Source: an uncultured Thermoleophilia bacterium
Lineage (GTDB): Bacteria; Actinomycetota; Thermoleophilia; Gaiellales; Gaiellaceae
DNA: 64,000 nucleotides
NCBI GenBank assembly: GCA_963824455.1
Contig: CAWGPJ010000002.1
Coordinates: 144,664 to 208,663, forward strand
Reading direction: 5' to 3'
Shown here one piece after another: positions 2,017 to 63,272 of this stretch (positions are counted from its first letter, which is position 1; every line of letters starts with the position of its first letter). Both the position numbers and the translations under genes were made by a program. The notes under the pieces were generated by a model, which was not told the DNA's origin, searched no databases, and was given only the letters and a program-made list of their open reading frames with translations.

Positions 2017-3960
2017 GTGAACCGTTTTCTCCGTAGCGCGTTTTTCCCGCTGATCGTGATCGTCGTGCTGGTGTGGCTGGCAAGCCAGACCCTGATCCAC
2101 ACGGGCGGGACGACGGAGAAGAAGACGACCTCGCAGGCGCTCACCGACGTCAAGAACGGGCAGGTCGACTCGGCCGTCTTCAATCCGAGCAAGCGGTCGA
2201 TCTCGCTCAAGTACGACAACGGGAAGAGCGCGACCGTCCACTACGCGTCCGACCAGGCGCAGATCCAGTTCCAGGAGGCGCTGCAGAGCAAGGGCGTCAC
2301 CTGGGACTCGAAGGGGACCGGCGGGTTCTCGTGGACGGCGCTGATCGGCAGCTTCCTGCCGTTCCTGCTCCTGATCGGGTTCTGGATCTTCCTGATGAAC
2401 CAGGTGCAGGGCGGCGGGTCGAAGGTGATGAGCTTCGGCAAGTCGCGCGCGAAGCGCATGGCGCCCGATTCGCCGAAGATCGGCTTCAAGGACGTCGCCG
2501 GCGTCGACGAGGCGGTGGAGGAGCTCCAGGAGATCAAGGAGTTCCTCGAGAACCCGAAGAAGTTCCAGGCGCTCGGCGCGTCGATCCCCAAGGGCGTGCT
2601 TCTGTACGGGCCTCCCGGCACCGGTAAGACGCTTCTCGCGCGTGCGGTCGCCGGCGAGGCAGGCGTGCCGTTCTTCTCGATCTCCGGCTCCGACTTCGTC
2701 GAGATGTTCGTCGGGGTCGGCGCCTCGCGCGTGCGCGACCTGTTCGAGCAGGCGAAGCAGGCATCGCCGTGCATCGTGTTCATGGACGAGATCGACGCGG
2801 TCGGCCGCCACCGCGGTGCCGGCCTCGGCGGCGGCCACGACGAGCGCGAGCAGACCCTCAACCAGCTGCTCGTCGAGATGGACGGCTTCGAGATGAAGGA
2901 CAACATCATCCTGATCGCCGCCACGAACCGTCCCGACATCCTCGATCCGGCACTGCTCCGTCCGGGCCGTTTCGACCGGCAGATCGTCGTCGACCGGCCC
3001 GACCGCAACGGCCGTCGCAAGATCCTCGAGGTGCACTCGAAGGGCAAGCCGCTGGCGTCGGTGATCGACCTCGACTCGCTCGCGGCCGGCACCCCCGGTT
3101 TCACGGGTGCCGACCTGCGCAACCTGGTCAACGAGGCCGCGCTGCTCGCGGCGCGCCGCGGCAAGAAGGTGATCGAGCAGGAGGAGCTCGAGGAGGGGAT
3201 CATGCGCGTGATCGCCGGGCCGGAGAAGAAGGCCCGCCTGCTCTCCGAGAAGGAGCAGCGGATCACCGCCTACCACGAGATGGGCCATGCGCTGGTCGGG
3301 CACTTCCTCGAGAACACCGACCCGGTGCACAAGATCACGATCGTGTCGCGCGGGCAGGCACTCGGGTTGACGATCTCGCTGCCGACCGAGGATCGCTACC
3401 TGACGACGCGCAAGGCGCTGCTCGAGCAGATCGCGATGACGATGGGCGGGCGCGCCGCCGAGGAGCTTGTCTTCAACGAGGTGACCACCGGCGCTGCGAA
3501 CGACATCGAGAAGGTGACTGCGACGGCGAAGCAGATGGTGATGCGCTTCGGCATGAGCGAGAAGCTCGGCCCGCGCGTCCTCGGCCGCAACCACGACATG
3601 CCGTTCCTCGGACGGGAGATGGGCGCCGAGCCCGACTACTCCGAAGAGGTCGCCCGCGAGATCGACGACGAGATCCGGCGGATCATCGAAGAGGGACACG
3701 ACCTCGCGAACAGGGTGCTCCGCGAGCACATCGACGACCTGCACCGGATTTCGCAGATCCTCATCGAGCGGGAGACGATCGACCGCGATCAGTTCCAGCG
3801 GCTCCTCGCCGGCGAGTCCGAGGACGCGGTCTTCCCGCCGGAGCCGGCGCCGGCCGCAGAGCCGCCGGGCGAGCCCGAGCGGCGGCCGCAGCCGAAGCCG
3901 CGGCCGTTCCCGCTGCCGGGCGGTGCGGCCATGCAGCCGCCTGAACCCGAGGCGAGCTAG
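2017..3960 (+). CDS. ftsH: ATP-dependent zinc metalloprotease FtsH
   Basis: N-terminal TM segment, Walker A GPPGTGKT, Walker [12 protein letters not shown] region, and zinc site HEMGHA. Length 647 aa. Confidence 0.97.
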
Positions 3961-4300
3961 GCTCGGCTCGGGTTCGCGTGGGTGCCCGCGTGCGGGCGGC
4001 CACCGATGTGCTCTGCCCGAGGCGAGCTAGGCTGGGCTCGGGTTCGCGTGGGTGCCCGCGTGCGGGCGGCCACCGATGTGCTCTGCCCGAGGCGAGCTAG
4101 GCTGGGCTCGGGTTCGTGTGGGTGCCCGCGTGCGGGCGGCCACCGATGTGCTCTGCCCGAGGCGAGCTAGGCTGGGCTCGGGTTCGTGTGGGTGCCCGCG
4201 TGCGGGCGGCCACCGATGTGCTCTGCCCGAGGCGAGCTAGGCTGGGCTCGGGTTCGCGTGGGTGCCCGCGTGCGGGCAGCCACCGATGTGCTTTGCCCTG
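3946..4300. repeat. 70-bp tandem direct repeat, 5 copies, beginning inside the last codons of ftsH
   Basis: The unit GGCGAGCTAGGCTGGGCTCGGGTTCGCGTGGGTGCCCGCGTGCGGGCGGCCACCGATGTGCTCTGCCCGA starts at 3951, 4021, 4091, 4161 and 4231, with 0-3 substitutions per copy and no spacers. Confidence 0.95.
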
Positions 4301-4341
4301 GCACCAGGAAGCCTCCGCCGGCCACGGGCGTTGAGGCTTTA

Positions 4342-5277
4342 GTGGGACGTGGGCGGCACTCCGCGGCGCTGCAGCTGCTCCTGGTCGCCGCGCTCTTCGG
4401 CGGGACGTGGCCCGCCGGGAAGGTGGCGGTCGACCACGTGCCCCCGCTCACCGTTGCGACGGCGAGGTTCGTGCTCGCGAGCATCCTCCTCGTCGCGATC
4501 GTCCGTCTGCGCGGCCGCCCGCTTCCCTTCCCCGCCCGCAGCGACCTGCCGCTCGTGCTCGCCCTCGGCCTGACGGGGATCGCGGCCTACCAGGCGTTCT
4601 TCCTGATCGGCCTCGTCCGGACGCCCGCGAGCGACGGCGCCATCCTCGTCCCCGGGCTGATCCCCGTGTTCACGACGCTGCTCGCGTGGCGCATCTACGG
4701 CCAGCGCCCGACCCGGCGGGTCGCGCTCGGGTTCGGGATCGCGATCGTCGGCCTCGTGGTCGTCGTCGATCCCGCCGGCGCGGTCAGCTCGAGCCGGCTC
4801 CTCGGCGACCTGATCCTCGTCGGCGCCGCCGTGTGCTGGGCGGTCTACACGATCCTGGGCCGCTCGGCGCTCGCGCGCTTCGACGCCCTGCTCGCCACCA
4901 CCTACGCCTCGATCGTCGGCGCGCTGATGCTCGCTCCGTTCTCGGTCACCGGCTGGGGGACGCTGGCCCACGCCGGCCGGGCCGCGTGGCTGTCGATCCT
5001 CTACCTCGCCCCGCTCGGGACGGTGCTCGCGTTCGTCCTCTACTACGGCGGCGTGCGCAGGCTCGGGGCGTCCCGGGCCGCCGCGTTCACGCTCCTCGTC
5101 CCCGTCTTCGGCGTGTCGTCGGCGATCCTCGTGCTCGGAGAGTCGCTGCGCGCCGGGCTCGCCGTCGGCGGCGCGATCGTGCTGGCCGGGCTCTGGCTGA
5201 TCCAGCGGCCTGCACGTCAGGCGCCGGCGGCCGCCGCGCCGAGCCCCGCCTCCCACGAGGCCCACAGCCGCGCGTAG
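4342..5277 (+). CDS. EamA/DMT-family transporter
   Basis: About 10 hydrophobic segments and two EamA-like halves (FGGTWPAGKVAV..., LAPLGTVLAFVLYYGGVRRLGASRAAAFTLLVP). The track ORF starts at 4186 inside the repeat array; the in-frame GTG at 4342 is a more plausible start. The start is uncertain. Confidence 0.8.
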   Translation: MGRGRHSAALQLLLVAALFGGTWPAGKVAVDHVPPLTVATARFVLASILLVAIVRLRGRPLPFPARSDLPLVLALGLTGIAAYQAFFLIGLVRTPASDGAILVPGLIPVFTTLLAWRIYGQRPTRRVALGFGIAIVGLVVVVDPAGAVSSSRLLGDLILVGAAVCWAVYTILGRSALARFDALLATTYASIVGALMLAPFSVTGWGTLAHAGRAAWLSILYLAPLGTVLAFVLYYGGVRRLGASRAAAFTLLVPVFGVSSAILVLGESLRAGLAVGGAIVLAGLWLIQRPARQAPAAAAPSPASHEAHSRA

Positions 5278-6950
5278 CGCTCGCCCCGGCGGACGAGCTC
5301 GTTGTGCGACGCCACCTCGACGAGGCGGCCGCCCTCGAGCACGGCGACGCGGTCGGCGCGCTGCGCGGTCGAGAGCCGGTGCGCGATCGTGATCATCGTC
5401 CGGCCCTGCGCCACCGCTGCGAGCGCCCGCTCCACGGCCGCCTCCGTTCGCGGGTCGAGAGCCGAGGTCGCCTCGTCGAGGACGATCACCGCCGGGTCGG
5501 CCAGCGCGACTCGCGCGATCGAGACGAGCTGCCGCTCGCCCGCGGACAGGCGCACGCCGCGCGAGCGCACGTCGGTGTCGAGGCCGCCGGGAAGTCGCGC
5601 GAACCGCTCGAGCGCCTCGATCGCCTCGAGCGCCGCGCGCACCTCGTGGTCGGCGGCGCCGGGCCGGCCGAGCCGAACGTTGTCGGCGATCGAGCCCGAG
5701 AAGAGGTGCCCCTCCTGCGGGACGAAGACGATGCGCCGCCGCAGCTCGTCGTGCCCGACGTCGCGCAGGTCGACGTCCCCGTAGGTCACGACGCCCTCCC
5801 GCGGGTCGTAGAAGCGCACGAGCAGCTTCGCCAATGTCGACTTGCCGGCGCCCGTCGGCCCGACCAGCGCCAGGTGCTCGCCCGCCTCGACCGACAGCGA
5901 GATGTCGGCGGCCGCCGGAGCTCCGCCGTCGTAGGCGAACGTGACCCCGGTCGCGCGCAGGGCGCCCGAGACGGGGAGCGCCGCCGTGCCGCCCTCGACC
6001 GTGACCGGCTCGGCGAGCAGGCCGGCGATCTTCTGCAGCGCCGCCCGCCCCGACTGGAACTCGGTGTACCAGTCGCCGAGCCTTGCGATCGGGTCGAAGA
6101 GCGAGATCAGGTACAGGGCGAACGCGACGATCGTCCCGACCGTGACCCGGCCGTGCCGCTCCAGGTACCCACCGACGACGAGCACCGAGGCCAGAGCGAG
6201 CGACTGCGCAAACGCGATCATCGGGAAGAAGCCGATGTTGACGAGCGAGATCCGGCGCCAGGCGGCGATCTGCGCGCGCGACCGGACCCGGTAGGAGGCG
6301 TAGCGGTCGGTCTCGCGGCGGTACGACTGCAGGACGCGTACGCCGGTCAGTCCTTCCTGGAGCGACGACATCGTCTCCGCGACCCGGTCGCGCAGCGCGA
6401 GAAACGCCGGTCTCGAGTTCCTCCCGTAGCGAAGCGACGACCAGACGAGCAGCGGCACCGGCACGAGCATGACCAGCGACAGGAGCGGTGACAGCGTGAC
6501 GAGGACGACGAGCGTGACGACGAACAGGAGCACCGAGCCCACGACCTCGACCAGCACCATCCGTGTGAACGTCGTCAGCGTCTGCACGTCGTTCGTCAGG
6601 CGCGAGACCAGCACGCCGGCGCGGGTCTCCTCGAAGAACGGCATCGAGAGGGCCTGCAGCTTGTCGAAGGCCGCCACGCGCAGGTCGCCGAGGAACCGCT
6701 CGCCGGCGCGTGCGCTGCAGAGCACGATCACGCGCTCGAGCACCGGCCGAACGAGGACGAGGACGAGGAAGATCCCCGCGGCGACGTTGACGGCGCGGGC
6801 GTTCCCCTTCGAGATGCCCTGATCGATCGCGTACTTCGTGAGCAGCGGCGCTGCGAGCGAGATCGCGGTCGCACCGATCATCGCCACCCCGGCGAGGGCG
6901 ATCGTCCGGCGGTACGGCCGCAGGATCGGCGCGATCTGCTCGCGGATCAC
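5217..6950 (-). CDS. ABC exporter, fused permease/ATPase subunit (second of a heterodimeric pair)
   Basis: This is the C-terminal part of the 1159-aa track ORF. It has 6 TM helices, then Walker A GPTGAGKST, signature LSAGERQ and Walker B VIVLDEATSALD. The GTG start at 6950 overlaps the upstream stop (GTGA). Confidence 0.9.
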   Translation of the reverse strand: MIREQIAPILRPYRRTIALAGVAMIGATAISLAAPLLTKYAIDQGISKGNARAVNVAAGIFLVLVLVRPVLERVIVLCSARAGERFLGDLRVAAFDKLQALSMPFFEETRAGVLVSRLTNDVQTLTTFTRMVLVEVVGSVLLFVVTLVVLVTLSPLLSLVMLVPVPLLVWSSLRYGRNSRPAFLALRDRVAETMSSLQEGLTGVRVLQSYRRETDRYASYRVRSRAQIAAWRRISLVNIGFFPMIAFAQSLALASVLVVGGYLERHGRVTVGTIVAFALYLISLFDPIARLGDWYTEFQSGRAALQKIAGLLAEPVTVEGGTAALPVSGALRATGVTFAYDGGAPAAADISLSVEAGEHLALVGPTGAGKSTLAKLLVRFYDPREGVVTYGDVDLRDVGHDELRRRIVFVPQEGHLFSGSIADNVRLGRPGAADHEVRAALEAIEALERFARLPGGLDTDVRSRGVRLSAGERQLVSIARVALADPAVIVLDEATSALDPRTEAAVERALAAVAQGRTMITIAHRLSTAQRADRVAVLEGGRLVEVASHNELVRRGERYARLWASWEAGLGAAAAGA

Positions 6951-35099: not shown

Positions 35100-35318
35100 T
35101 CAGTCGGAGAGGCGGAGCCCGAGCCAGAGGCCCGCTACGCCGCCGACGGCGGCGAACAGGAGGCCCTGGAGCCCGAGCCCGTTGTTGCCCCAGAGCGCCG
35201 GGACGAAGCCTCCGACGAACGTCCCGAACACGGCGCAGAGCATGACGACGGAACGGCCCATTGCCTCATCGTCGGCTTCTCCTCTCCGTCGCTCGACCCT
35301 CGCCCGCGCCGGCTCCAT
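35100..35318 (-). CDS. small two-TM membrane protein (likely starts at the internal ATG at 35261, giving 53 aa)
   Basis: MGRSVVMLCAVFGTFVGGFVPALWG...LLFAAVGGVAGLWLGL forms two Gly-rich hydrophobic helices. It lies 4 nt after the ferredoxin stop. Confidence 0.4.
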   Translation of the reverse strand: MEPARARVERRRGEADDEAMGRSVVMLCAVFGTFVGGFVPALWGNNGLGLQGLLFAAVGGVAGLWLGLRLSD

Positions 35319-35505
35319 GGAGGCTTAACGCAAGCAGCGGGCACGCCTCGACGGCCCTCGCCGCGTGGCGCTCGAGCGACGGCGGGATCGGCGTCTCGTC
35401 GATCATCGCGTAGCCCCACTCGTCCAGGGTGATGCGCTCCGGGAAGAGCTCGGCGCACAGGCCGCGCCCGTCGCAGGCGATCGGGTCGATCCGCAGCTTC
35501 TTCAC
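35266..35505 (-). CDS. small ferredoxin-like protein
   Basis: KLRIDPIACDGRGLCAELFPE...AVEACPLLAL has the Cys pattern of single-cluster ferredoxins. The GTG at 35505 overlaps the NuoF-like stop (GTGA). Confidence 0.65.
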   Translation of the reverse strand: MKKLRIDPIACDGRGLCAELFPERITLDEWGYAMIDETPIPPSLERHAARAVEACPLLALSLHGAGAGEGRATERRSRR

Positions 35506-36707
35506 CGGCGGCCGCCGGGCACGGCGAGCACGCGCCCGTCCCTGCGGCCGCAGCTTCCCCGCTTCGCATGGAGCGCCAGGTCCTCGCCGAAAACGTCGAG
35601 AGCGCTCGAGAGAAAGCCGACCGCGCCGTCCGGGTGGCGGCATGCGCCGCGCCGGCGCACCTGCGCGGCGAGCTCCTCGAGCCGGGCGCCCCGTGAAGCG
35701 CTGCGCGACTCCGCCATCACGTTTGCGATCGCGCGCAGGCCGTGCACGCACGGGCCGCACTGGCCGGCGCTCTGGTCGGCCAGATACGACAGCACGCGTA
35801 CGCACTCCGCCAGGGCGCAGACGTCGGCCGGGAGCACGACGATCGCGCCCGCACCGAGGACGTCGGGTGTGAGCTCCAGGGCGGGCACGTCGCCCGGAGC
35901 GATCCACCGGCCGAACAGCCCGCCGACGAGAACCCCCTGCACGGGGCCCGTCGGATTGCCCGCCCGCTCGATCACCTCGGCGAGGCGCGCGCCGAGCTCG
36001 ATCTCGTACACGCCAGGCCGTGCGACCGAGCCGCCGAGGGTGACCATCGCCGTGCCGGGCGCATCGGGCCGGCCGGCGCCTCGAAACCAGCCCGGCCCGA
36101 AGCGCGCGATCAGGGCGACGTGCGCGAGCGTCTCGGCGTTCGAGACCAGCGTGGGCGCTCCGTCGATCCCCTGTTCGAACGGGAAGGGCGGTTTCAGCGA
36201 CGGCTTGGCGTCCCGGCTCGACAGTGCGTTGACGAGCGCCGTCTCCTCGCCGGCGACGAAGCGGTCGGGGACCGTGGCCGTGCGCAGCCTCGTCTTCCCG
36301 TCGCGGCCGCGGCGCTGTGCGATCGCCTCCTCGACGATCGCGCGCTCGCGCGTCGCGGCGTGCGAGAGGGCGACGACCGCGTCGCGGGCGCCGAGCGCCT
36401 GGCTCGCCGCGACCATCCCGTCGAGGACGAGGTGCGGCGCGACCCGGAGGAGCGCCCGGTCCTTGCCGCTCACGGGCTCGCCCTCGACGGCGTTCGCGAC
36501 GACGACGGGCTGCCCTCCCGCATCGGCGACTGCGCCGAGCTTGGTCGCCGTCGGAAAGGCGGCGCCGCCGCGTCCGCGCAAACCCGCGCGCTCGACGCCC
36601 ACGATCAGGTCGTCGGTCGCGCCGAGCGGCCCGAAGAGCGCGACGTGGTTGTCGAGTGAGGGGGGAAGGCCGCCCGACACGCCGGCCAGCAGCCGCGTCG
36701 AGCTCAC
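35502..36707 (-). CDS. NuoF-like protein (complex I 51-kDa family; SLBB and 4Fe-4S binding region)
   Basis: GLRGRGGAAFPTATK, VANAVEGEPVSGKDR, FVAGEETALVNAL, and SAGQCGPCVHG, the NuoF-type Fe-S motif. Confidence 0.82.
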   Translation of the reverse strand: MSSTRLLAGVSGGLPPSLDNHVALFGPLGATDDLIVGVERAGLRGRGGAAFPTATKLGAVADAGGQPVVVANAVEGEPVSGKDRALLRVAPHLVLDGMVAASQALGARDAVVALSHAATRERAIVEEAIAQRRGRDGKTRLRTATVPDRFVAGEETALVNALSSRDAKPSLKPPFPFEQGIDGAPTLVSNAETLAHVALIARFGPGWFRGAGRPDAPGTAMVTLGGSVARPGVYEIELGARLAEVIERAGNPTGPVQGVLVGGLFGRWIAPGDVPALELTPDVLGAGAIVVLPADVCALAECVRVLSYLADQSAGQCGPCVHGLRAIANVMAESRSASRGARLEELAAQVRRRGACRHPDGAVGFLSSALDVFGEDLALHAKRGSCGRRDGRVLAVPGGRR

Positions 36708-37789
36708 TCCTGTTCCGTCCCGCTCGGCACGGTTGCGGTCAGGCTGCCGCGCACTGCGCCGGTGCTGCTGTCGATCGAGACGACGAGCGTCAGCCGCAGG
36801 TGGTCGCCGGCGCCGTCGACGACGTCCGCGGCGAGCGCGTTGCCGTTGAGGCCGGTCACGTGCCCCTCGTAGAGGGCGCCGGTGGTCGCCGGGACGAACG
36901 AGACGCCGCTGGCCGTCAGCGAGACGCCGCCTCCCGACGGCTCTCCGCGGAGGTCGATCCGCAGTGCGCCGCGTGGTGTACCTCGCAGGCGCAGCTCGAG
37001 GCGGACGGTGACGAGCCCGCTCGCGTCAGCGTGCTGCGAGACGGTTCCCCTCACGCTCGAGGTGAACGAGCGCGGCGGCTGCGCCGTCGTGAGCACGGTC
37101 GACCGGGCGGCCGTTCCTCCGAGCAGCGACGACGGCGTCCCCGCGCGGTGCGCCCAGCCGGACGCGAGCGGGCCGCTGCGGTACCAGCCGAGCACGAGAA
37201 CCGGCACGATGACCGCGGCGGCGAAGCCCGCGGTCCGAGTCGGGCCGGGCCCCGCTGCCAGGCCGAGCCGGGCGACGACGGCGAGGACGACGACGGCGAG
37301 CGAGCCGACGGCGACCGCGGCGAGCCACGACGTGCGCGGATCGCTGCCGGTGCCGAGCGCGTGCACCAGGGCGATCGGCCAGCACGCGTAGGCGAGCCAG
37401 TGGACCGAGCGCCAAATGCGCACGCCGATGCGCGCGCGGAGCAGGCTCGTCACCACGATCGCGAGCAGGAGGTCGAACGCGACGGCGCCGAGGCCGAGCC
37501 ACAGCGGGCGGTATGCGGAGGCGAACGGCACGACGGCGTCCGTGAGGCGAATCGGCGCGTAGCCGTCGGCGACCGTCGTCACCACGTGAACGGCGACGAA
37601 CGCGATCGCGAGCAGCGTGAGGTTCCGGTGCATCCCGGCGACGGCGAAGCGCGGCCAGCGCCGGAGCTTCACGCCGAGGGTGGTCGTGACGCCGAGCAGG
37701 ACCGACGCCGTCAGGAGGAGCAACGCGACGACGCCTGTGCCCCGCGTCAGGTACCACAGCTCCTTGGCGTTGCCCGCCGCGGCGATCAT
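36704..37789 (-). CDS. ferric-reductase-like transmembrane protein with a C-terminal extracytoplasmic domain
   Basis: Six TM helices with conserved His pairs (GMHRNLTLLAIAFVAVHV; WRSVHWLAYACWPIALVHAL), as in the MsrQ/FRD family, then a beta-rich tail of about 130 aa. ATGA and GTGA overlaps on both sides. Confidence 0.75.
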   Translation of the reverse strand: MIAAAGNAKELWYLTRGTGVVALLLLTASVLLGVTTTLGVKLRRWPRFAVAGMHRNLTLLAIAFVAVHVVTTVADGYAPIRLTDAVVPFASAYRPLWLGLGAVAFDLLLAIVVTSLLRARIGVRIWRSVHWLAYACWPIALVHALGTGSDPRTSWLAAVAVGSLAVVVLAVVARLGLAAGPGPTRTAGFAAAVIVPVLVLGWYRSGPLASGWAHRAGTPSSLLGGTAARSTVLTTAQPPRSFTSSVRGTVSQHADASGLVTVRLELRLRGTPRGALRIDLRGEPSGGGVSLTASGVSFVPATTGALYEGHVTGLNGNALAADVVDGAGDHLRLTLVVSIDSSTGAVRGSLTATVPSGTEQE

Positions 37790-38724
37790 GCCGCCTCCGC
37801 GGCGCGCGGCCAGTCCCCGACGTAGCGAACCGCCCCGTCGCTCGTGACGAGGCGCGCGTGCACCCGCCGGTCGTCGAGCCACTCGATCGCGCCGTCGCCG
37901 CAGACGATCGCTGCGGTGGCGGCGACGTTCGCCGCCAGGCAGGACGCCGCCGCGACGCTCACCGTCCGCCACGGTGTGTCCGCGGGCCGGCCGGTACGCG
38001 GGTCGATCAGGTGATGCGCCTCGCCGCCCGCCGTCGGCCAGCGGCGCACCGCCGTCCCCGACGTGGCGAGCCCGCCGGCCACGATCGCGACGAGCGGGCC
38101 CGCGACGTCGTGTGGGGCGGCATGGTCGTCCGCGATCCGGACGCACCAGCCGCCCCGTGGCGGAGTGCCGGCGACGGCGACGTCACCACCGAGCGAGACG
38201 AGCACGCCGGAACCGAGAACGGCGGCCAGCTCGCGGGCCGCGTCGTCGGCCTCCTTGGCTTTCGCGGTCGCGCCGAGGTCGAGCTCGACGCCGCGGGGGA
38301 TCGCGAGCGTCCCCCGGTCGTCGTCGACGACCACCTCGCGCCATCGCGATCCGGTGGGCCTGCCGGGGCGCAGCGCCCAGCTCTCGCGCTCGCGCACGAG
38401 CGTGAAGGTGCGGTCGTACCCCGCGTCGCGGAGCGCCCGGCCGACGGTCGGGTCGACGAGCCCGCCGCTCCCGGCCGCCGCGGCGAGCGCGTCCGCGACC
38501 GCCGCGCGCAACTCCGGCGACGCGGGGCGCGCACGACCTGCGTGTGCGTTCGCCCGGGAGAGCTCCGAGTCGCCGCGGAAGCGGCTGCAGAGCCGGTCGA
38601 GCCGGTCCAGGCGCTCTGCGAGCATGCGCCGTGCGTCCGGCAACGCCTCGGCCCGCGTGACTGCGACCGTGGCTGTCGTGCCGATCGCCGTGAAGGTCGC
38701 CGCGTCGACGTCGCTCCGGCTCAC
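37786..38724 (-). CDS. apbE: FAD:protein FMN transferase (ApbE family)
   Basis: SRFRGDSELSRAN, VDPTVG, LDLGATAKA, GGLATSGT, HHLIDPRTGRP. No signal peptide is seen from the GTG at 38724. Confidence 0.85.
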   Translation of the reverse strand: MSRSDVDAATFTAIGTTATVAVTRAEALPDARRMLAERLDRLDRLCSRFRGDSELSRANAHAGRARPASPELRAAVADALAAAAGSGGLVDPTVGRALRDAGYDRTFTLVRERESWALRPGRPTGSRWREVVVDDDRGTLAIPRGVELDLGATAKAKEADDAARELAAVLGSGVLVSLGGDVAVAGTPPRGGWCVRIADDHAAPHDVAGPLVAIVAGGLATSGTAVRRWPTAGGEAHHLIDPRTGRPADTPWRTVSVAAASCLAANVAATAAIVCGDGAIEWLDDRRVHARLVTSDGAVRYVGDWPRAAEAA

Positions 38725-39050
38725 GACCCTCCGGAGACGGCGACCGGCGGGGCGGCCGGCGGGGCGGCCGCCGGGGGCGGGGCTGCCGGCTGCGGCGCGG
38801 CGGCGGCGGCCTGGGAGACGGCGACGAGTGGTGGCGCGGGGGCGACGACCCGCGTCCGCCTGCGTTGAGTCGTGCGCGCAGGGGTCTTCGCCGCGTGATG
38901 GGTGTGCGTCGACGCCGATGCGAGCGCGGCGAACGTCCCGCCGAGCGCGACGCAGCCTGCGGCGACGAGCACCGTCGACCTGCGCACGCGGGCGACGGCG
39001 GCATCGCGAGCGGCGATCGCCACGCGGAGCTGGGCGGATCCCTGCGACAT
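38721..39050 (-). CDS. small N-terminally anchored Pro/Ala-rich protein
   Basis: A single TM segment (VLVAAGCVALGGTFAALASA) is followed by AAPQPAAPPPAAAPPAAPP. Its stop overlaps the apbE GTG (GTGA), which supports translation. Confidence 0.5.
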   Translation of the reverse strand: MSQGSAQLRVAIAARDAAVARVRRSTVLVAAGCVALGGTFAALASASTHTHHAAKTPARTTQRRRTRVVAPAPPLVAVSQAAAAAPQPAAPPPAAAPPAAPPVAVSGGS

Positions 39051-39101
39051 GCCGGGATGGTTGCCGAGGGGGATGAGATCCGCGTGAGCAGGTGTTTGTC
39101 G

Positions 39102-40457
39102 TCAGGAGGCCGGGATCGAGATGCAGACGTCGGCCCCGCCGCCCGGCGCCTCCGCGACGCGCGCGGTCCCGCCGTGTGCGCGCGCGATCAGGTCGACGAT
39201 CGCGAGCCCGAGCCCGGCGCCGCCTCGTTCGCGTGCATCGTCGGGCCGGCTGAAGCGGTCGAACGCGCGCTCGGCGAAGCCCTCCGGGAGACCCGGACCG
39301 CCGTCCGTGACGTGAAGCTCGACGACGCCGTTCCTCCTCGAAGCGCTCAGCTCGATCTCCCCGCTCGCATGCGCGAACGCGTTGTCGACGAGGTTGCCGA
39401 GCGCCTGTTCGAGGCGCACGGGGTCCGCCTCGAACACCACGTCTCCCCCGGCCGTCACGGTGAGCGGCCGTTCGAGCTCGGCTGCGCGAACCGCGAACCG
39501 ATCTCGGACCCGGTCGAGCAGCTCGCGTCCGTTCAGCTCCTCGCGGCGGATCGGGAGCCGTCCCTCGTCGACGCGAGCGATCAGGAGCAGGTCCTCGGCG
39601 AGGCGCGAGAGCCGCTCTGTCTCCTCCGCGGCCGATCTGATCGCCGCCGCGTACTCCTCCCGGCTGCGCGGACGGCGCAGAGCGAGCTCGAGCTCGGCGC
39701 GAAGCAGGGCGAGCGGCGTCCGGAGCTCGTGGCTCGCGTCGGCGACGAACCGCCGCTCGTGCTCGAACGCCGCCTCGAGCCGGTCCAGCATGTCGTTGAG
39801 CGTGATCGCGAGCGCGTGGATCTCGTCCCGGGCCGGCGGGACGGGCAGGCGCTTCCCCGGGCTGTGTGCGGTCACGGACGCGGCGCGGCGCCGCATCGCC
39901 TCGACCGGGCGGAGCGCGGCGGCGGCGAGCCCGTAGCCGGCCAGGATCGCCAGGAGCAGCGCGGCGGGCGCGGCAAAGAGGAACTCCCGGCCGAGGCGGT
40001 CGAGTGTCTCCTCGCGTGCCCCGAGCGACCTGCCGATCATCAGGACGGCAGGGCCGCCCTGGACGTGGATGGGCACCGCCAGCACGCGCCACTCCCCGCG
40101 CAGGCCGGCGAGGTCGGTCGTCGTCCGAACCTTGCGTCCCGCAACGGCGGCCCGGCGAAGAGACGGCGGCACGATCGGCCGCATCCCGTCCGGGGACGAC
40201 CGCACCACGGCGCCGCTCGCGAGCTGCACCTGGGCGACGGTCGGGCCGTCGCTCACATCAGGGTCGAGCAGCTCGTGGTGGCCCTCGATCGCGTGCGACG
40301 TCGCCTCCGACAGTTGTGCCCTGAGGTTCTGGTCGACGCTCGTGAGCAACGCGCTGCCGACCCGCAGGTACAGGACGAAGCCCATCGCGGCGAGCACGGC
40401 CGCCATCACCAGTGCGAACGGGAGGATGAGCCGGATCCGGATCGGCAGCCGGCTCAC
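39102..40457 (-). CDS. sensor histidine kinase (HAMP-HisKA-HATPase_c)
   Basis: Two TM helices, H-box [14 protein letters not shown]-box LGNLVDNAFAH, and G-box [10 protein letters not shown]. The GTG at 40457 overlaps the response regulator stop. Confidence 0.9.
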   Translation of the reverse strand: MSRLPIRIRLILPFALVMAAVLAAMGFVLYLRVGSALLTSVDQNLRAQLSEATSHAIEGHHELLDPDVSDGPTVAQVQLASGAVVRSSPDGMRPIVPPSLRRAAVAGRKVRTTTDLAGLRGEWRVLAVPIHVQGGPAVLMIGRSLGAREETLDRLGREFLFAAPAALLLAILAGYGLAAAALRPVEAMRRRAASVTAHSPGKRLPVPPARDEIHALAITLNDMLDRLEAAFEHERRFVADASHELRTPLALLRAELELALRRPRSREEYAAAIRSAAEETERLSRLAEDLLLIARVDEGRLPIRREELNGRELLDRVRDRFAVRAAELERPLTVTAGGDVVFEADPVRLEQALGNLVDNAFAHASGEIELSASRRNGVVELHVTDGGPGLPEGFAERAFDRFSRPDDARERGGAGLGLAIVDLIARAHGGTARVAEAPGGGADVCISIPAS

Positions 40458-41140
40458 GAGGGCACTCCGCCGTCCTCGCGCAGCCGGTACCCGACACCCC
40501 GGACGGTCTCGATCGAGGACAGGCCGAAGGGACGGTCGACCTTCTCGCGGAGGTAGCGGATGTACACGTCGACGATGTTCGAGCGGCTCTCGAACGCCAT
40601 GTCCCACGCGCCGTCGAGGAGCTGCAGTCGCGTGAGCACCTGGCCGGGGCGGCGCATGAACAGCTCGAGGATCGCGAACTCGCGTGCGGTGAGGGTGAGC
40701 TCGCTCGTTCCCCGCCACGCGCGCCGCCCCGCCGGGTCGAGCCGGAGGTCGCCGACCTCGATCACGGTCGGGCGCTCGACGGGGCCGCGTCGCACGATCG
40801 CGCGGATCCGGGCGAGCAGCTCGTCGAACGAGAACGGCTTGGTGAGGTAGTCGTCCGCGCCGGCGTCGAGCCCGCCGACGCGGTCGGTGATCGCGTCGCG
40901 GGCCGTGAGCATCAGCACCGGCGTCCAGACCTGGTTCGCGCGCAGGCGGCGCAGGATCTCGAAGCCGTCGATGCCGGGGAGCATCACGTCGAGCACGATC
41001 GCGTCGTACGGCGCCGCCTGCGCCATCCACAGCGCCTCGTTGCCCTCCGCCGCGACGTCGGCCGCGTGCCCCTCCTCCCGGAGGGCGCGGGCGACCAGCG
41101 CCGACAGCTTCGGCTCGTCGTCGATGACCAGCACGCGCAC
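40454..41140 (-). CDS. OmpR-family response regulator
   Basis: MRVLVIDDE, DAIVLDVMLPGIDG and ADDYLTKPF, plus a winged-helix C-terminus (IETVRGVGYRL). Confidence 0.93.
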   Translation of the reverse strand: MRVLVIDDEPKLSALVARALREEGHAADVAAEGNEALWMAQAAPYDAIVLDVMLPGIDGFEILRRLRANQVWTPVLMLTARDAITDRVGGLDAGADDYLTKPFSFDELLARIRAIVRRGPVERPTVIEVGDLRLDPAGRRAWRGTSELTLTAREFAILELFMRRPGQVLTRLQLLDGAWDMAFESRSNIVDVYIRYLREKVDRPFGLSSIETVRGVGYRLREDGGVPS

Positions 41141-41222
41141 GCGGGCATTGTTCCCTGCGTGCGCCTCGGTTCGTCGGCACGTCTCACGCCGTTCTCATCG
41201 GGCTTTGTGGGACTTAGGGCCC

Positions 41223-41804
41223 GTGTCGGCGGAAGGAAATGCACGCTTGACGGCGGCGACGGCGGCCATCCTGCTCGTCCTGCTCGCAGCCGAGGGCGCG
41301 ACGATCCCGTTCGTGGGCCGGTTGACGACCCTCCACATCTTCATCGGCGTGCTGCTCGTCCCGGTCGTCCTGCTCAAGGCCGTGAGCTCGGCCTGGCGCT
41401 TCGGCTCGTACTACCTCGGGCGCGACGAGTACGTGCGTCGCGGCCCACCGCCGCCGTTGCTCCGGCTGCTCGTCGCACCGCTCGTGGTCGTCTCGACGGT
41501 CGTCCTCTTCGGGACGGGGATCCTGCTGATCGTGCTCAGTCCGGAGCGGGGAGCCGTGCTCGGGCTGCACAAGGCGTCGTTCCTCGTCTGGTTCGCGGCG
41601 ATGACCGCGCACGTGCTCGCCCACTTCCTGCGCGTGCCGGGCCTCGTACGCGAGGACCTGCGCCCGGGCCAGCGCGGGGCGGCGCTCCGGCAGCTCGTCG
41701 TCGCTGGCGCGGTCGTCGCGGGCCTCGTCGCCGCGGTCGTGCTGCTGCCCGAGGCCCACGCCTGGAGCCAGTGGGTGACGGCGCATCCTCGCCACGACGG
41801 CTGA
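41223..41804 (+). CDS. His-rich four-TM membrane protein (possible b-type cytochrome), divergent from the two-component system
   Basis: Four hydrophobic helices carry TLHIFIGV and GLHKASFLVWFAAMTAHVLAHF. The GTG at 41223 is chosen within the longer track ORF. Confidence 0.5.
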   Translation: MSAEGNARLTAATAAILLVLLAAEGATIPFVGRLTTLHIFIGVLLVPVVLLKAVSSAWRFGSYYLGRDEYVRRGPPPPLLRLLVAPLVVVSTVVLFGTGILLIVLSPERGAVLGLHKASFLVWFAAMTAHVLAHFLRVPGLVREDLRPGQRGAALRQLVVAGAVVAGLVAAVVLLPEAHAWSQWVTAHPRHDG

Positions 41805-41840: not shown

Positions 41841-42848
41841 ATGACGCGTGTCCGTTTCGCGCCGAGCCCGACCGGCACCCTGCACGTCGGCAACGCGCTC
41901 AGCGCCGTCGCGAACCGCGACTTCGGCGACTGGATGCTCCTGCGCATCGACGACACCGATCCGGCGCGCAACGTGGGCGGCGGCGAGCAGGCGATTCTCG
42001 ACGATCTCGGCTGGCTCGGGGTCTCGTGGGACGAGGGGCCGGTCAGGCAGAGCGAGCGCGCCGGCCGGTACCTCGAGGCGGCGCGGGCCGCCGGGGTCGA
42101 CCAGCGGTTCGACGGCGTGATGCTGTGGCGCGACGACGGGTCGCCGACGTTCCACCTCGCGAGCGTCGTCGACGACCACGACTTCGGGATCACGCACGTG
42201 ATCCGGGGCTCCGACCATCGCGCGAACGAGGAGCTGCATGCCGCGCTGCACCGCGCGCTCGGGTTCGAGCCGCCCGAGGTGATCCATCACGGCCTGGTCG
42301 TCGGCGCCGACGGGAAGAAGCTCGCGAAGCGCTCCGCCGGAGCAACTGTCGCGTCGCTGCGCGATGCCGGCTATCCGGCCGAGGCGGTGCGCGCGTACCT
42401 CGAGGGGCTCGGGCTGCCGCGCCACGACGTGCACCTCGACCTCGACCGCATCCGCTCGCTGTCGGTCGACGTGCTCGACGGCCTGCAGGACGAGGAGCTC
42501 GCGTCGAGAGTGGGCATACCGGTCGAGGCGGTTCCGCTCGTCCGCGGCGCGCACGACCTGGTCGAGGCGCGGGCACTCGCCGCGAGCGTGCTCGATGCGC
42601 CGCGGGGAGGCCTGCCGGAGGCGCGCAGCCCCGAGACGCTGGAGCGGTTCGTCGAGCTCCGCGCGCCGCTCCCGGACGCGCTCGACAAGGACGCGGCGAG
42701 GCTTCTGCTGCGCGAGCTGAAGGCGGTCGGCGGCGACCTGCGCGGGCTGCGCGAGGCCCTCACCGGCCGCGATCGCGGCCCCGAGCTGTGGGCGGTGCTG
42801 CGTGCGCTGCCGCGCGACGAGGCGATCCGCCGCGCCCGTCTAACCTAG
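41841..42848 (+). CDS. short glutamate--tRNA ligase family protein (335 aa)
   Basis: HIGH motif SPTGTLHVGNA, LRIDDTDPAR, TFHLASVVDD, ITHVIRGSDH, and KMSKS-like KKLAKRS. It lacks the connective-peptide insertion and most of the anticodon-binding domain. Confidence 0.8.
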   Translation: MTRVRFAPSPTGTLHVGNALSAVANRDFGDWMLLRIDDTDPARNVGGGEQAILDDLGWLGVSWDEGPVRQSERAGRYLEAARAAGVDQRFDGVMLWRDDGSPTFHLASVVDDHDFGITHVIRGSDHRANEELHAALHRALGFEPPEVIHHGLVVGADGKKLAKRSAGATVASLRDAGYPAEAVRAYLEGLGLPRHDVHLDLDRIRSLSVDVLDGLQDEELASRVGIPVEAVPLVRGAHDLVEARALAASVLDAPRGGLPEARSPETLERFVELRAPLPDALDKDAARLLLRELKAVGGDLRGLREALTGRDRGPELWAVLRALPRDEAIRRARLT

Positions 42849-61320: not shown

Positions 61321-62601
61321 CTAAGCCGTCGGCAGGACGATCCGGAAGCGGGCGCCGGCCGGTGAGTTCTCGGCCGTGGCCCGTCCGCCGTGGGCCTCGG
61401 CCGCCTCGCGCACGATCGCGAGGCCGAGGCCGGCGCCCGGCTTCGAGCGCGCGGTTGCCGCCCGGTAGAAGCGGTCGAAGACGCGCGGCAGGTCCTCGTT
61501 CGCGATGCCGGGGCCGTGGTCGGTGACGACCACCTCGCCGCCGCGCACCGACACCTCGATCGGCGCGCCGGCCGGGCTGTACTTGACGGCGTTGTCGAGC
61601 AGGTTCGAGATCGCCCGGTCGAGCAGCACCGGATCGGCCCGCACGTGCGTGGGCGACAGCGCCGTCACGAACGTGACCTGCGGCGCCCGCGCCTGCGCGC
61701 GTTCGACGCTCGCCGCGACGAGGTCGTCGAGCTGGACGTCCTCGAGCCGGAGCTTGCGCTCCTCGCCGCGCGCCAGCTCGACCAGGTCGGCGACGAGGCT
61801 CGTCAGGGCGTCGAGCTCGACCGAGGACTCCGCAAGAGCATGCTCGGCCTCCTCGGGAGGCAGCTTGCCCTCGCGCAGCAGGTCGATGTTCGTGCGCACA
61901 GCGGTCAGGGGCGTGCGCAGCTCGTGCGAGGCGTCGGCGACCAGCCGGCGCTGTGCGCCGACGGAGCGCTCGAGTGCGGCGAGCATGTCGTTGAAGCGGG
62001 TGGCGAGGCGGCCGAGCTCGTCCTCGGATGTCACCTCGACGCGCTCGGTCAGGTCGCCGGTGGCGGCGACGTTCTCGGCCGCGGCCGTGAGTCGGCGCAC
62101 CGGCCGCAGGGCCGCCGTCGCGACGAAGGCGGCAAGCGCCGCCGCGAGCGCAATCCCGATCCCGCCGATCAGGAAGATCCAGAAGCGGATGCGGTGCAGT
62201 GCGTGGGTGGTCGGCGTGAGCGGGGCGATCGTGAGCACCGCTCCAACTCGCTGACCCGGATAGACGAGCTCGCGGACGGGAATGCCCTGCGTCTTGGTGT
62301 TGAAGTAGTAAGGGCTCCGGTCCTCACCGCCCGCCGCGACCCTCAGGGCCCGCGAGGTCACCGGGACGATCGGCGAGCCGTGGCGGTCGCCGTCCGGCCC
62401 GATCACCAGCGTGAGGTTGTTCCCGCCGCCGAACGGGCCCTGCACGCCGTTGCTGGCCTGGAAGTAGAGCGTCGAGTCCAGCTGGGAATAGAGCTCGTGC
62501 TTCGCGACCATCCACACCGCGACCGAGGCACCCGTCACCGCCAGGGCGATCGCCGTCGCCGTGAGCAGCATCAGCTTGGCGCGGAAGCTGAGCCGGCTCA
62601 T
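61321..62601 (-). CDS. sensor histidine kinase
   Basis: Two TM helices, a HAMP domain, H-box [14 protein letters not shown]-box [11 protein letters not shown], and G-box GAGLGLAIV. Confidence 0.9.
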
Positions 62602-63272
62602 AGCTCTTCGCGGAGCGCGTACCCGACGCCGCGCACGGTCTGGAGCAGGCGCGGCTCGCCGTTCTCCTCGAGCTTGCGGCGCAGGTAGCCGACGTAGACC
62701 CAGAGGGCGTTCGACGTCGCGCCGAAGTCGTAGCCCCAGACGCGTTCGTAGATCTGCGAGCGGGTGAGCACCTGCCGCGGGTTGCGGAGGAAGAGCTCGA
62801 GGAGGTTGAACTCGGTGCGCGTCAGCTGGAGCCGCCGGTCGCTCCGGAACGCCTCCCGTGTCGAGGGATCGAGCCGGACGTCGGCGAAGGTGAGCACGTC
62901 CTCACCGCCGCCCGTGCGGCGCAGGAGCGCACGCACGCGCGCGCGGAGCTCCTCGATCGCGAACGGCTTCACCAGGTAGTCGTCGGCGCCGGCGTCGAGC
63001 CCTTCGACGCGATCCTCGACGGCATCGCGGGCCGTGACGACGAGCACCGGCACCGAGTCGCCCCGGCGGCGCAGCGAGCGGCAGACCTCGAGCCCGCCGA
63101 TCTCGGGCATCAAGAGGTCGAGGACGATCGCGTCGGCGGCGGCCGCGGCGTGGCGCGCGAGCGCCTCGGAGCCGTCGGCGGCCTCGTCGACCTCGTAGTC
63201 CAGCCGCAGCGCGCGCGAGATCGCGGACCGGACGGCCGGGTCGTCGTCGACGACGAGAACGCGGGATGTCAT
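62598..63272 (-). CDS. OmpR-family response regulator
   Basis: [47 protein letters not shown] overlap with the kinase gene. Confidence 0.92.

Follow-up and report, generated by a model that had tools for sequence, protein, structure and literature searches.

What does a flavin transferase of the ApbE family modify when its gene lies between that of a putative heme-binding membrane protein and that of a small protein of no described family? This question is raised by a cluster of seven genes on the minus strand (35266–41140) of a 64-kb stretch of DNA from an uncultured Thermoleophilia bacterium of the family Gaiellaceae; the whole stretch, whose G+C content is about 74%, is referred to as the window hereafter. 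The cluster encodes a response regulator (RR) and a histidine kinase (HK) of a two-component system, a membrane-anchored mini-protein, ApbE, a membrane protein with a ferric-reductase domain (FRD), a NuoF-like protein, and a ferredoxin (Fd). It seems rather probable that these genes specify an inducible, 'split NOX-like' electron-export chain with a flavinylated mini-protein, which is typical of Thermoleophilia.

In the proposed chain, the stand-alone NuoF-like flavoprotein would oxidize cytoplasmic NAD(P)H by way of flavin mononucleotide (FMN) and then an iron–sulfur (Fe-S) cluster, and the one-cluster Fd would hand single electrons to the inner heme b of the FRD protein. The electrons would then traverse the membrane to the outer heme, on the face where the FRD protein is predicted to carry an additional sixth helix and an eight-stranded β-barrel. 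ApbE most probably attaches FMN to the last Ser of the mini-protein, beyond a Pro/Ala-rich linker of about 60 residues, because this is the sole conserved ApbE-type site in the cluster and the ApbE gene is adjoining and translationally coupled. The tethered flavin would collect electrons from the outer heme or the barrel for an acceptor. Finally, the OmpR-type RR and the HK would switch on the peptide-ApbE-FRD-NuoF-Fd genes and a divergent gene through the direct repeat CTCAY-N6-CTCAY located at −35. Few uncultured soil Actinobacteria are more common than Gaiellales and their relatives, and the gene set is near-universal in 80 Thermoleophilia genomes retrieved via the FRD homolog. If the proposal is correct, an aerobic monoderm would here possess a regulated route by which NAD(P)H is consumed to send electrons out of the cell, and such export would be relevant to the reduction of metals or humic substances, to the production of reactive oxygen, or to the repair of the envelope.

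Structure and conservation of the cluster

The seven open reading frames (ORFs) lie at the positions given in an earlier note made from the letters of the window. The cluster contains the following features (lengths in amino acids, aa).

40454–41140, minus strand: RR of the OmpR family, 228 aa; Pfam Response_reg and Trans_reg_C
39102–40457, minus strand: HK, 451 aa; Pfam HAMP, HisKA, and HATPase_c
38721–39050, minus strand: mini-protein (the 'anchored peptide' of the earlier note), 109 aa, single-pass; no Pfam or NCBIfam match
38724–38750, minus strand: C-terminal P-P-V-A-V-S-G-G-S of the mini-protein, candidate site for flavinylation of the last residue by ApbE
37786–38724, minus strand: ApbE-family FAD:protein FMN transferase (FAD, flavin adenine dinucleotide), 312 aa; PF02424
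37175–37789, minus strand: FRD protein, membrane part (residues 1–205), six helices; PF01794
36731–37069, minus strand: FRD protein, C-terminal eight-stranded β-barrel (residues ~241–353) in the AlphaFold2 model
35502–36707, minus strand: NuoF-like protein, 401 aa; Complex1_51K, SLBB, and NADH_4Fe-4S
35266–35505, minus strand: single-cluster Fd, 79 aa; Fer4_15

Direct reading of the ORFs and their junctions bore out the earlier note on the five overlaps of 4 nt and the gap of 51 nt. GTGA overlaps occur at 40454–40457, 38721–38724, 36704–36707, and 35502–35505, an ATGA overlap at 37786–37789 joins the ApbE and FRD genes, and the gap separates the HK stop (39102) from the ATG of the mini-protein gene (39050). 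Independent gene calls on a public contig with 82% identity gave the same boundaries (228, 451, 110, 312, 361, 402, and 79 aa). All of the Pfam assignments score above the respective gathering cut-offs, confirming the domains that had been named from the letters, and the mini-protein alone of the seven is without a match. The closest public proteins were found in Gaiellaceae and other Thermoleophilia metagenome-assembled genomes (MAGs).

For the conservation analysis, we used the best 80 of 195 FRD relatives, one genome per species, within Thermoleophilia, and the neighbors at the 80 loci were located by tblastn with the window proteins. Cluster order and orientation are kept for the FRD protein in 80 loci, for the NuoF-like protein in 79, and for Fd in 78; therefore, the core of the cluster is FRD-NuoF-Fd. 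Because the gene order is kept across 80 species-level genomes, the arrangement is not a matter of chance. ApbE occupies its cluster position in 68 of the 80 loci and is absent from 12, and the RR and HK genes adjoin the cluster in 65. Neither ApbE nor the two-component system is thus indispensable, although both are frequent neighbors.

Several side observations were made on these loci. Three of them, from the more distant Solirubrobacteraceae (L069, L072, and L079; at about 3600–6400), hold peptide-FRD-NuoF-Fd without ApbE and without the two-component system, and there the set adjoins genes that are cytochrome bd subunit II-like and universal-stress-protein-like by their N-terminal sequences. 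The same cluster is carried by L033, L055, and L058, whose record labels read Limnocylindria, Jatrophihabitantaceae, and Chloroflexi; these labels therefore point either to mis-binning or mislabeling of MAGs or to horizontal transfer. Within the window, a 53-aa ORF with two hydrophobic segments (35100–35261, minus strand) begins 4 nt past the Fd stop. It has no match in Pfam or NCBIfam, is gene-called (53 aa) on the 82%-identical contig, and is detectable in 7 of the 80 loci only; it may be a lineage-specific additional member of the operon.

The membrane protein and its cytoplasmic electron donors

The FRD protein matches PF01794 (Ferric_reduct) with 38.2 bits against a gathering score of 28, over residues 18–139 only. 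Two His pairs, H54/H68 (13 residues between) and H130/H143 (12 between), are invariant in 113 sequences, and the four His are likewise invariant in 24 sequences and in the 80 loci. Judged from the sequences, this H-x13-H/H-x12-H pattern is the bis-heme signature of the ferric-reductase-domain superfamily. The AlphaFold2 model of the protein (mean predicted local distance difference test score, pLDDT, 80.5) has six helices followed by an all-β domain, so the six-helix, four-His protein of the earlier note stands. A search of the PDB sequences with the FRD profile gave no significant match. Foldseek matched the helices to STEAP2 (7tai; probability 1.00), to STEAP1, and to the transmembrane (TM) domain of NOX5 (5o0t; probability 0.99, TM-score 0.52 normalized by target). 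The FRD protein has more than 5000 homolog clusters in public metagenomes; in the homolog searches with the FRD and NuoF-like proteins, the best 120 matches listed were all at least 54% identical to the query.

Basic residues (Lys and Arg) cluster in loops 1, 3, and 5 of the FRD protein, and its helices 2 and 4, which bear the His pairs, are the counterparts of NOX helices 3 and 5, both directed outward from the inside. From the positive-inside rule and this helix correspondence, we infer an N-terminus on the outside, a helix 6 added to the NOX core, and a C-terminal domain that is likewise outside; the tail is thus probably extracytoplasmic, as had been supposed. When modeled alone (mean pLDDT 88.4), the tail forms an eight-stranded up-and-down β-barrel, whose pLDDT exceeds 90 within the full-length model. 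Its best solved matches are a DUF3237 protein (9m2z; TM-score 0.48), allene oxide cyclase (0.49), and streptavidin (0.40). An assignment of the tail to FMN_bind or DUF2271 was rejected: no Pfam family at all is matched even at E = 10, and the tail folds into a β-barrel whose TM-scores to solved structures all stay below 0.5.

Two stretches of this tail were also rejected as ApbE sites. IDSSTGAV, the near-match to the flavinylation motif that the earlier note had pointed out, is present, but it is a chance match because it is not conserved: DTTTDVV, DSGTSAV, or DSGTNAV takes its place in close homologs. The other stretch, SGVS at residues 294–297, is found in 37 of the 80 loci only and is otherwise replaced by SDVA, SSVG, or SRVT.

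As for the cytoplasmic side, the best solved relative of the NuoF-like protein is Thermus Nqo1 (E = 1e-51), of which it retains the FMN/NADH motifs GRGGAAFPT and GEETAL. C297, C317, C320, and C356 are invariant, C297 being an extra Cys, and H358, H380, and C386 are further conserved residues. The score against the equivalog TIGR01959 is 207 bits, far under the cut-off of 558.65, and no NuoE or NuoG gene lies near the NuoF-like gene; therefore, the protein is NuoF-like and not a part of complex I. Fd matches Fer4_15 with E = 2.5e-12, and its C11, C17, and C55 are invariant in 78 loci. The wire from cytoplasmic NAD(P)H through a membrane heme protein, as drawn in the earlier note, fits well with the invariant His pairs, the STEAP2/NOX5 fold, the FMN/NADH motifs, and the near-perfect synteny; the earlier interpretation thus holds in its broad lines, although several of its details need correction.

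The mini-protein and its C-terminal motif

The mini-protein is composed, in order, of ARDAAxxRxRRxT, an Ala/Gly-rich TM segment, ASTH with a basic stretch, APAPPLV, the Pro/Ala-rich linker, and PPVAVSGGS-COOH. An intact ORF with such an end was found in 73 of the 80 loci, directly 5′ of ApbE or, where ApbE is absent, of FRD. The remaining 7 loci include L025, L054, and L058 (contig end), L062 (apparently so), and L069 and L078 (assembly frameshift), and the mini-protein therefore accompanies FRD in effectively every complete locus. In 11 loci it occurs although ApbE is missing, and in about 10 (L028, L047, L050, L052, L056, L064, L066, L067, L072, and L079) no two-component system adjoins it. 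Thus, the anchored peptide recognized in the earlier note does exist, but it is not the minor constituent that it was taken for: it is a core component, and no other protein of the cluster carries an ApbE-like motif that is conserved.

A profile search of 1.84 billion representatives yielded 233 mini-protein clusters at 50% identity. Among the best 150 representatives, 136 end in [ST]G[GAT][ST], with SGGS accounting for 122 and the other endings being TGGS, SGGT, SGAT, SGAS, TGAS, and SGTS. The C-terminal consensus is P-V-V/A-V-S-G-G-S-COOH, the exceptions are shortened or frameshifted gene calls, and a distant member ending in TGAS has the same gene context. The fourth-from-last Ser is encoded by TCC, TCG, TCT, AGC, or AGT, and all four codons are used at both Gly positions; selection therefore acts on this C-terminus at the protein level. 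The possibility that SGGS is kept merely as a Shine-Dalgarno sequence for ApbE was rejected on the same codon usage (TCN and AGY for Ser, all four codons for Gly), and SGGS also persists in L003, in which about 70 nt separate it from the next gene, and in loci lacking ApbE.

Relative to the flavinylation motif D-x-x-[ST]-G-A-[ST], the mini-protein keeps [ST], Gly, and the acceptor residue in the 136 representatives, and no conserved [ST]G[AGSVT][ST] was found in any other protein of the cluster. At 58 of 65 distinct junctions, the mini-protein gene shares 4 nt (GTGA or ATGA) with the ApbE gene. ApbE itself scores 160.8 bits against PF02424 (gathering score 25.6), and its best solved relative is TM1553 of T. 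maritima (E = 6e-20), with the alignment starting at residue 13. It carries HHLIDPRTG; the pattern HH[ILVM][ILVMF]DPxxG is present in 46 of 56 orthologs, H237 and H238 are invariant, and the enzyme looks catalytically competent.

The literature on flavinylation offers several parallels. A seven-residue motif suffices as an ApbE tag, and a terminal position suits tags best; the Asp can be lost with little effect, two tested substitutions at the Gly/Ala positions lower flavinylation to about 50%, and cytosolic ApbEs are known (PMC12052999). Flavinylation on an unstructured C-terminal extension has been documented for FMN_red proteins (PMC11334425). Some genomes hold an ApbE without a recognized substrate ('orphan ApbE'), and DUF2271 and DUF3570 were recognized as substrates through gene association and a conserved motif (PMC8238504). 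Since short terminal tags suffice, a C-terminal precedent exists, orphan ApbEs occur, and the motif is the only conserved one in the cluster, the mini-protein is a probable ApbE substrate, as judged from its motif, its gene context, and the work on tags. It is also a concrete candidate among the substrates of orphan ApbEs.

A few further observations concern the mini-protein. A twin-arginine translocation (Tat) export signal is unlikely because the twin arginine varies: R-x-R is conserved, whereas the strict R-x-[RK]-R occurs in 62 of 131 sequences, with variants such as RVRM, RVRL, RLKV, and RLSR. The apparent mini-protein-ApbE fusions P0305, P0375, P0396, and P0299 were discarded as Rosetta-stone evidence, their Arg-rich out-of-frame stretches marking frameshifted gene calls; a like frameshift lies within the GC-rich Pro/Ala-rich linker in L069 and L078. 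In L061, two ORFs with mini-protein-type ends (PVAATGGS* and PPVVSSGGS*) are located at 6266 and 7092, about 800 nt apart.

Is the mini-protein flavinylated?

A number of findings weigh against the electron-export chain with a flavinylated mini-protein, and four of them concern the flavinylation step. One is that the motif departs from the canonical form: Gly stands in place of Ala in 132 of the 136 sequences, and the Asp position (−6) is occupied by Val or Ala. Another is that SGGS is intact in the 11 ApbE-less loci, out of 12 among the 80, in which the mini-protein is readable. The third is that both TM flanks of the mini-protein are positive (+3.4 on the N side and +2.7 on the C side), and its orientation is insecure for this reason; the charges weakly favor the tail-outside orientation. 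The fourth is that ApbE lacks a signal peptide, as the earlier note had remarked, while the mini-protein tail and the barrel are predicted to lie outside. In the window and in the 56 orthologs, neither a signal peptide nor a hydrophobic N-terminal extension was found, and the domain begins at residue 13–15; the 13–15 residues ahead of the first β-strand are too few to accommodate a signal peptide. Therefore, the enzyme and its candidate substrate would be in separate compartments, unless the modification precedes export. The remaining three findings concern the electron path. No Cys, His, or Met is conserved in the FRD tail, so that the barrel offers no conserved redox ligand; the first Cys of the N3 motif CxxCxxC in the NuoF-like protein is changed to Ala (SAGQCGPC), giving a non-canonical Fe-S motif; and no gene for an acceptor or a terminal enzyme lies within ±10 kb on the 82%-identical contig.

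Some of these findings agree with an alternative in which the chain operates as proposed with the mini-protein unflavinylated, and we regard this as a possible, though rather unlikely, explanation. The mini-protein would then be a structural or assembly subunit of FRD, with its TM segment packed on FRD and its PVVVSGGS strand docked on or in the barrel, and ApbE would have its role elsewhere, either on another substrate or as an FAD pyrophosphatase or FMN supplier to the NuoF-like protein. The preponderance of SGGS over SGA[ST] (122 of the best 150) together with the missing Asp, the retention of the motif in 11 loci without an adjoining ApbE, and the location of ApbE, cytoplasmic by its sequence, all agree with such a subunit, and V-V-V would be typical of a β-strand. 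However, the other cluster proteins have no conserved ApbE motif, and neither FMN_bind, DUF2271, nor DUF3570 genes were found within ±10 kb on the 82%-identical contig. Moreover, the rare variants SGAT, TGAT, TGAS, and SGAS are canonical ApbE sites, and the 4-nt overlap between the peptide and ApbE genes (58 of 65 junctions) also speaks against the subunit role.

If the mini-protein is flavinylated, the compartment problem has to be dealt with, and a signal-less ApbE next to an apparently exported target is a puzzle for the flavinylation field. Attachment of FMN to the disordered tail prior to export is physically conceivable. We put forward quite tentatively, as a doubtful proposal, that the mini-protein is a natural C-terminal 'flavin tag', namely a new class of ApbE substrate without a folded flavin-binding domain, to which the cytoplasmic ApbE would add FMN before export. 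If so, FAD outside the cell would no longer be needed, and the flavin, on its tether of about 60 residues held in the membrane next to FRD, could swing between the outer heme or β-barrel and acceptors in the cell wall.

Regulation of the cluster

The nearest NCBIfam models to the RR are CztR/SilR/CopR (TIGR01387; 246 bits, below the cut-off of 279.2) and HprR, and the HK scores 257 bits against CztS/SilS/CopS (TIGR01386), below the cut-off of 292.55. The HK has TM segments at 10–28 and 159–177 around an outer loop of about 130 aa, in which no conserved Cys, His, or Met was found across the loci. As a side observation, a second pair of an OmpR-type regulator and an HK, 51% and 33% identical to the cluster pair, respectively, is encoded at 61354–63263 on the minus strand of the window.

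These scores bear on a second alternative, namely that FRD is a true MsrQ feeding a periplasmic-type methionine-sulfoxide reductase (MsrP) encoded elsewhere, under HprSR-like oxidant sensing as in E. coli hprRS-msrPQ. The database names of the homologs ('MsrQ/YedZ') and the 210 bits of the RR against HprR are in its favor, as is the CusRS-like system that adjoins msrPQ in E. coli. Nevertheless, we consider it improbable. The RR falls far short of the HprR cut-off of 353, the HK sensor loop lacks a conserved Met or Cys, and the inspected DNA, namely ±10 kb in the one fully gene-called neighborhood and five other flanks, showed no MsrP/Oxidored_molyb gene; in addition, MsrPQ has neither the extra helix and the barrel nor NuoF-like and Fd partners.

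The cis-elements and the divergent gene are located as follows.

39073–39088, minus strand: direct-repeat box CTCACGCGGATCTCAT, putative RR site inside the 51-nt HK-peptide gap
41183–41198, plus strand: direct-repeat box CTCACGCCGTTCTCAT, 24 nt ahead of the divergent ORF
41223–41804, plus strand: divergent membrane ORF, 193 aa; no family assigned

The pattern CTCAYN6CTCAY has only 2 matches in the 64-kb window (CTCACGCGGATCTCAT and CTCACGCCGTTCTCAT), with 0.41 expected. A relaxed form of the box is present in 50 of 64 orthologous HK-peptide gaps, against a background probability of 0.008 per region, and in 46 of 64 loci it also occurs within 130 nt 5′ of the regulator gene. In 39 of 57 boxes, the 3′ end lies 22–25 nt from the mini-protein start codon, and in most of the hexamers at −12 to −7 of this codon, such as GACCAT and CAGGCT, position −11 is A and position −7 is T. 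OmpR/PhoB-type activators use direct repeats with an 11-bp period at −35. The box therefore probably overlaps the −35 region of a leaderless promoter for peptide-ApbE-FRD-NuoF-Fd. The obligatory co-expression of all seven genes, which the earlier note had deduced from the overlaps, is made unlikely by this conserved regulator-type repeat, whose spacing to the peptide start is fixed. The most economical reading would be that the regulator drives leaderless promoters of peptide-ApbE-FRD-NuoF-Fd and of the divergent ORF, and that the cluster constitutes two transcription units plus one regulon member rather than one obligatory transcript. The conserved box provides a handle on the regulon and the inducing signal.

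A strongly conserved element, GGAACAAT (41141–41160), occurs about 8 nt 5′ of the regulator start and is found at this position in the majority of loci. Counted from the start codon, position −11 is A and position −7 is T, and this placement suggests that the regulator gene itself gives a leaderless mRNA. A scan for sigma-70 and terminator consensus sequences was uninformative in this DNA of 74% G+C.

It is very improbable that the mini-protein, induced by the RR, acts outside the redox chain by feedback on the HK, like MgrB on PhoQ: it is indeed small, membrane-anchored, and encoded directly 3′ of the HK gene with a putative box 5′ of it, but it stays directly 5′ of ApbE/FRD in about 10 loci without an adjoining two-component system.

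The divergent ORF is present in 41 of the 80 loci and probably belongs to the same regulon as the cluster. It has five hydrophobic segments, rather than the four helices previously counted, and three invariant His (H38, H116, and H130), the last two being 13 residues apart. No Pfam or NCBIfam match was obtained. The ORF may encode a b-type cytochrome, as the earlier note suggested, but no relation to FRD or to a known cytochrome b was found (hhalign against FRD, probability 0.3%; Dcytb in the PDB, E = 0.97; no consistent Pfam family). Beyond it, directly 5′ of cysS, lies a 335-aa class-I glutamyl-tRNA-synthetase-like gene (41841–42848, plus strand) with the catalytic domain only (tRNA-synt_1c in the ortholog); it may be a GluQ-RS-type paralog and not the housekeeping GluRS.

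Comparison with known systems

The earlier note stated that no function was known to be assigned to this combination of genes, but clusters of MsrQ-like and NuoF-like genes with ApbE have already been cataloged. Méheust et al. (2021) found MsrQ-like flavinylation clusters to be broadly actinobacterial, 31 of them with a NuoF-like gene, and proposed NAD(P)H as the donor; the study contained no experiments (PMC8238504). Their operational definition is a PF01794 gene in a cluster with apbE or an FMN-binding gene (PMC8238504), and in the window, the ApbE gene overlaps the FRD gene by 4 nt. In their 2024 follow-up, MsrQ was modeled as a two-heme cytochrome. A full-text literature search revealed no further paper on the NuoF-like, FRD, and ApbE combination and no experiment on it. 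The window cluster is thus a member of a cataloged but uncharacterized kind, in a variant form. It shares with the NuoF subset the PF01794 gene beside apbE, the NuoF-like PF10589 entry point, and the actinobacterial lineage, and the model of cytosolic NAD(P)H, transmembrane hemes, and an extracytosolic flavin is also alike. However, those clusters typically hold a gene for an FMN-binding domain (PF04205), which is found neither in the present cluster nor within ±10 kb on the 82%-identical contig; the 109-aa mini-protein with terminal SGGS stands in its place, accompanied by a signal-less ApbE and by the helix and barrel added to FRD. Fd, the dedicated two-component system, and the cis-acting box had not been described for those clusters.

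The E. coli MsrPQ/HprSR system (YedYZ/YedVW), including MsrQ-Fre, is similar in having an FRD-family heme protein, a separate cytoplasmic reductase, and a CusRS-type two-component neighbor. It differs in that no MsrP gene was found at the inspected loci, that the donor here would be the NuoF-like protein with Fd and not Fre or quinol, and that the HK and RR score under all of the named cut-offs. The complex I subunit NuoF/Nqo1 has the same Complex1_51K, SLBB, and NADH_4Fe-4S domains, the GRGGAAFPT FMN loop, and GEETAL, whereas the present protein stands alone with no NuoE or NuoG nearby, has the first N3 Cys replaced, and has gained the conserved C297.

NOX5 and STEAP2 share with FRD the two-heme core (H-x13-H and H-x12-H), the fold as judged by Foldseek, and, if the proposed chain is correct, an electron path that starts at a cytoplasmic nicotinamide nucleotide and ends on the outer face. 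Unlike NOX, FRD has no fused FAD/NADPH dehydrogenase, and two separate proteins, the NuoF-like protein and Fd, are present instead; the first NOX helix is missing, and a helix after the core and a C-terminal β-barrel, predicted to lie outside, have been added. The extracellular electron transfer system of Listeria (Ndh2, EetA/B, PplA, and FmnB) is comparable in that a monoderm passes NADH electrons to a surface-tethered, ApbE-flavinylated carrier. Its membrane components are different, PplA has folded FMN-binding domains, and FmnB is extracytosolic, whereas the candidate carrier here is a disordered peptide and ApbE is cytoplasmic by its sequence. The closest parallels to this peptide are the ApbE flavin tags and the FMN_red tails, in which a short unstructured terminal motif is enough and the flavin on a flexible tail can reach a binding site (PMC12052999, PMC11334425). 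In those cases, the motif is [ST]GA[ST] with the Asp of the tag, on soluble proteins; here, the candidate is SGGS at the extreme end of a membrane-anchored mini-protein.

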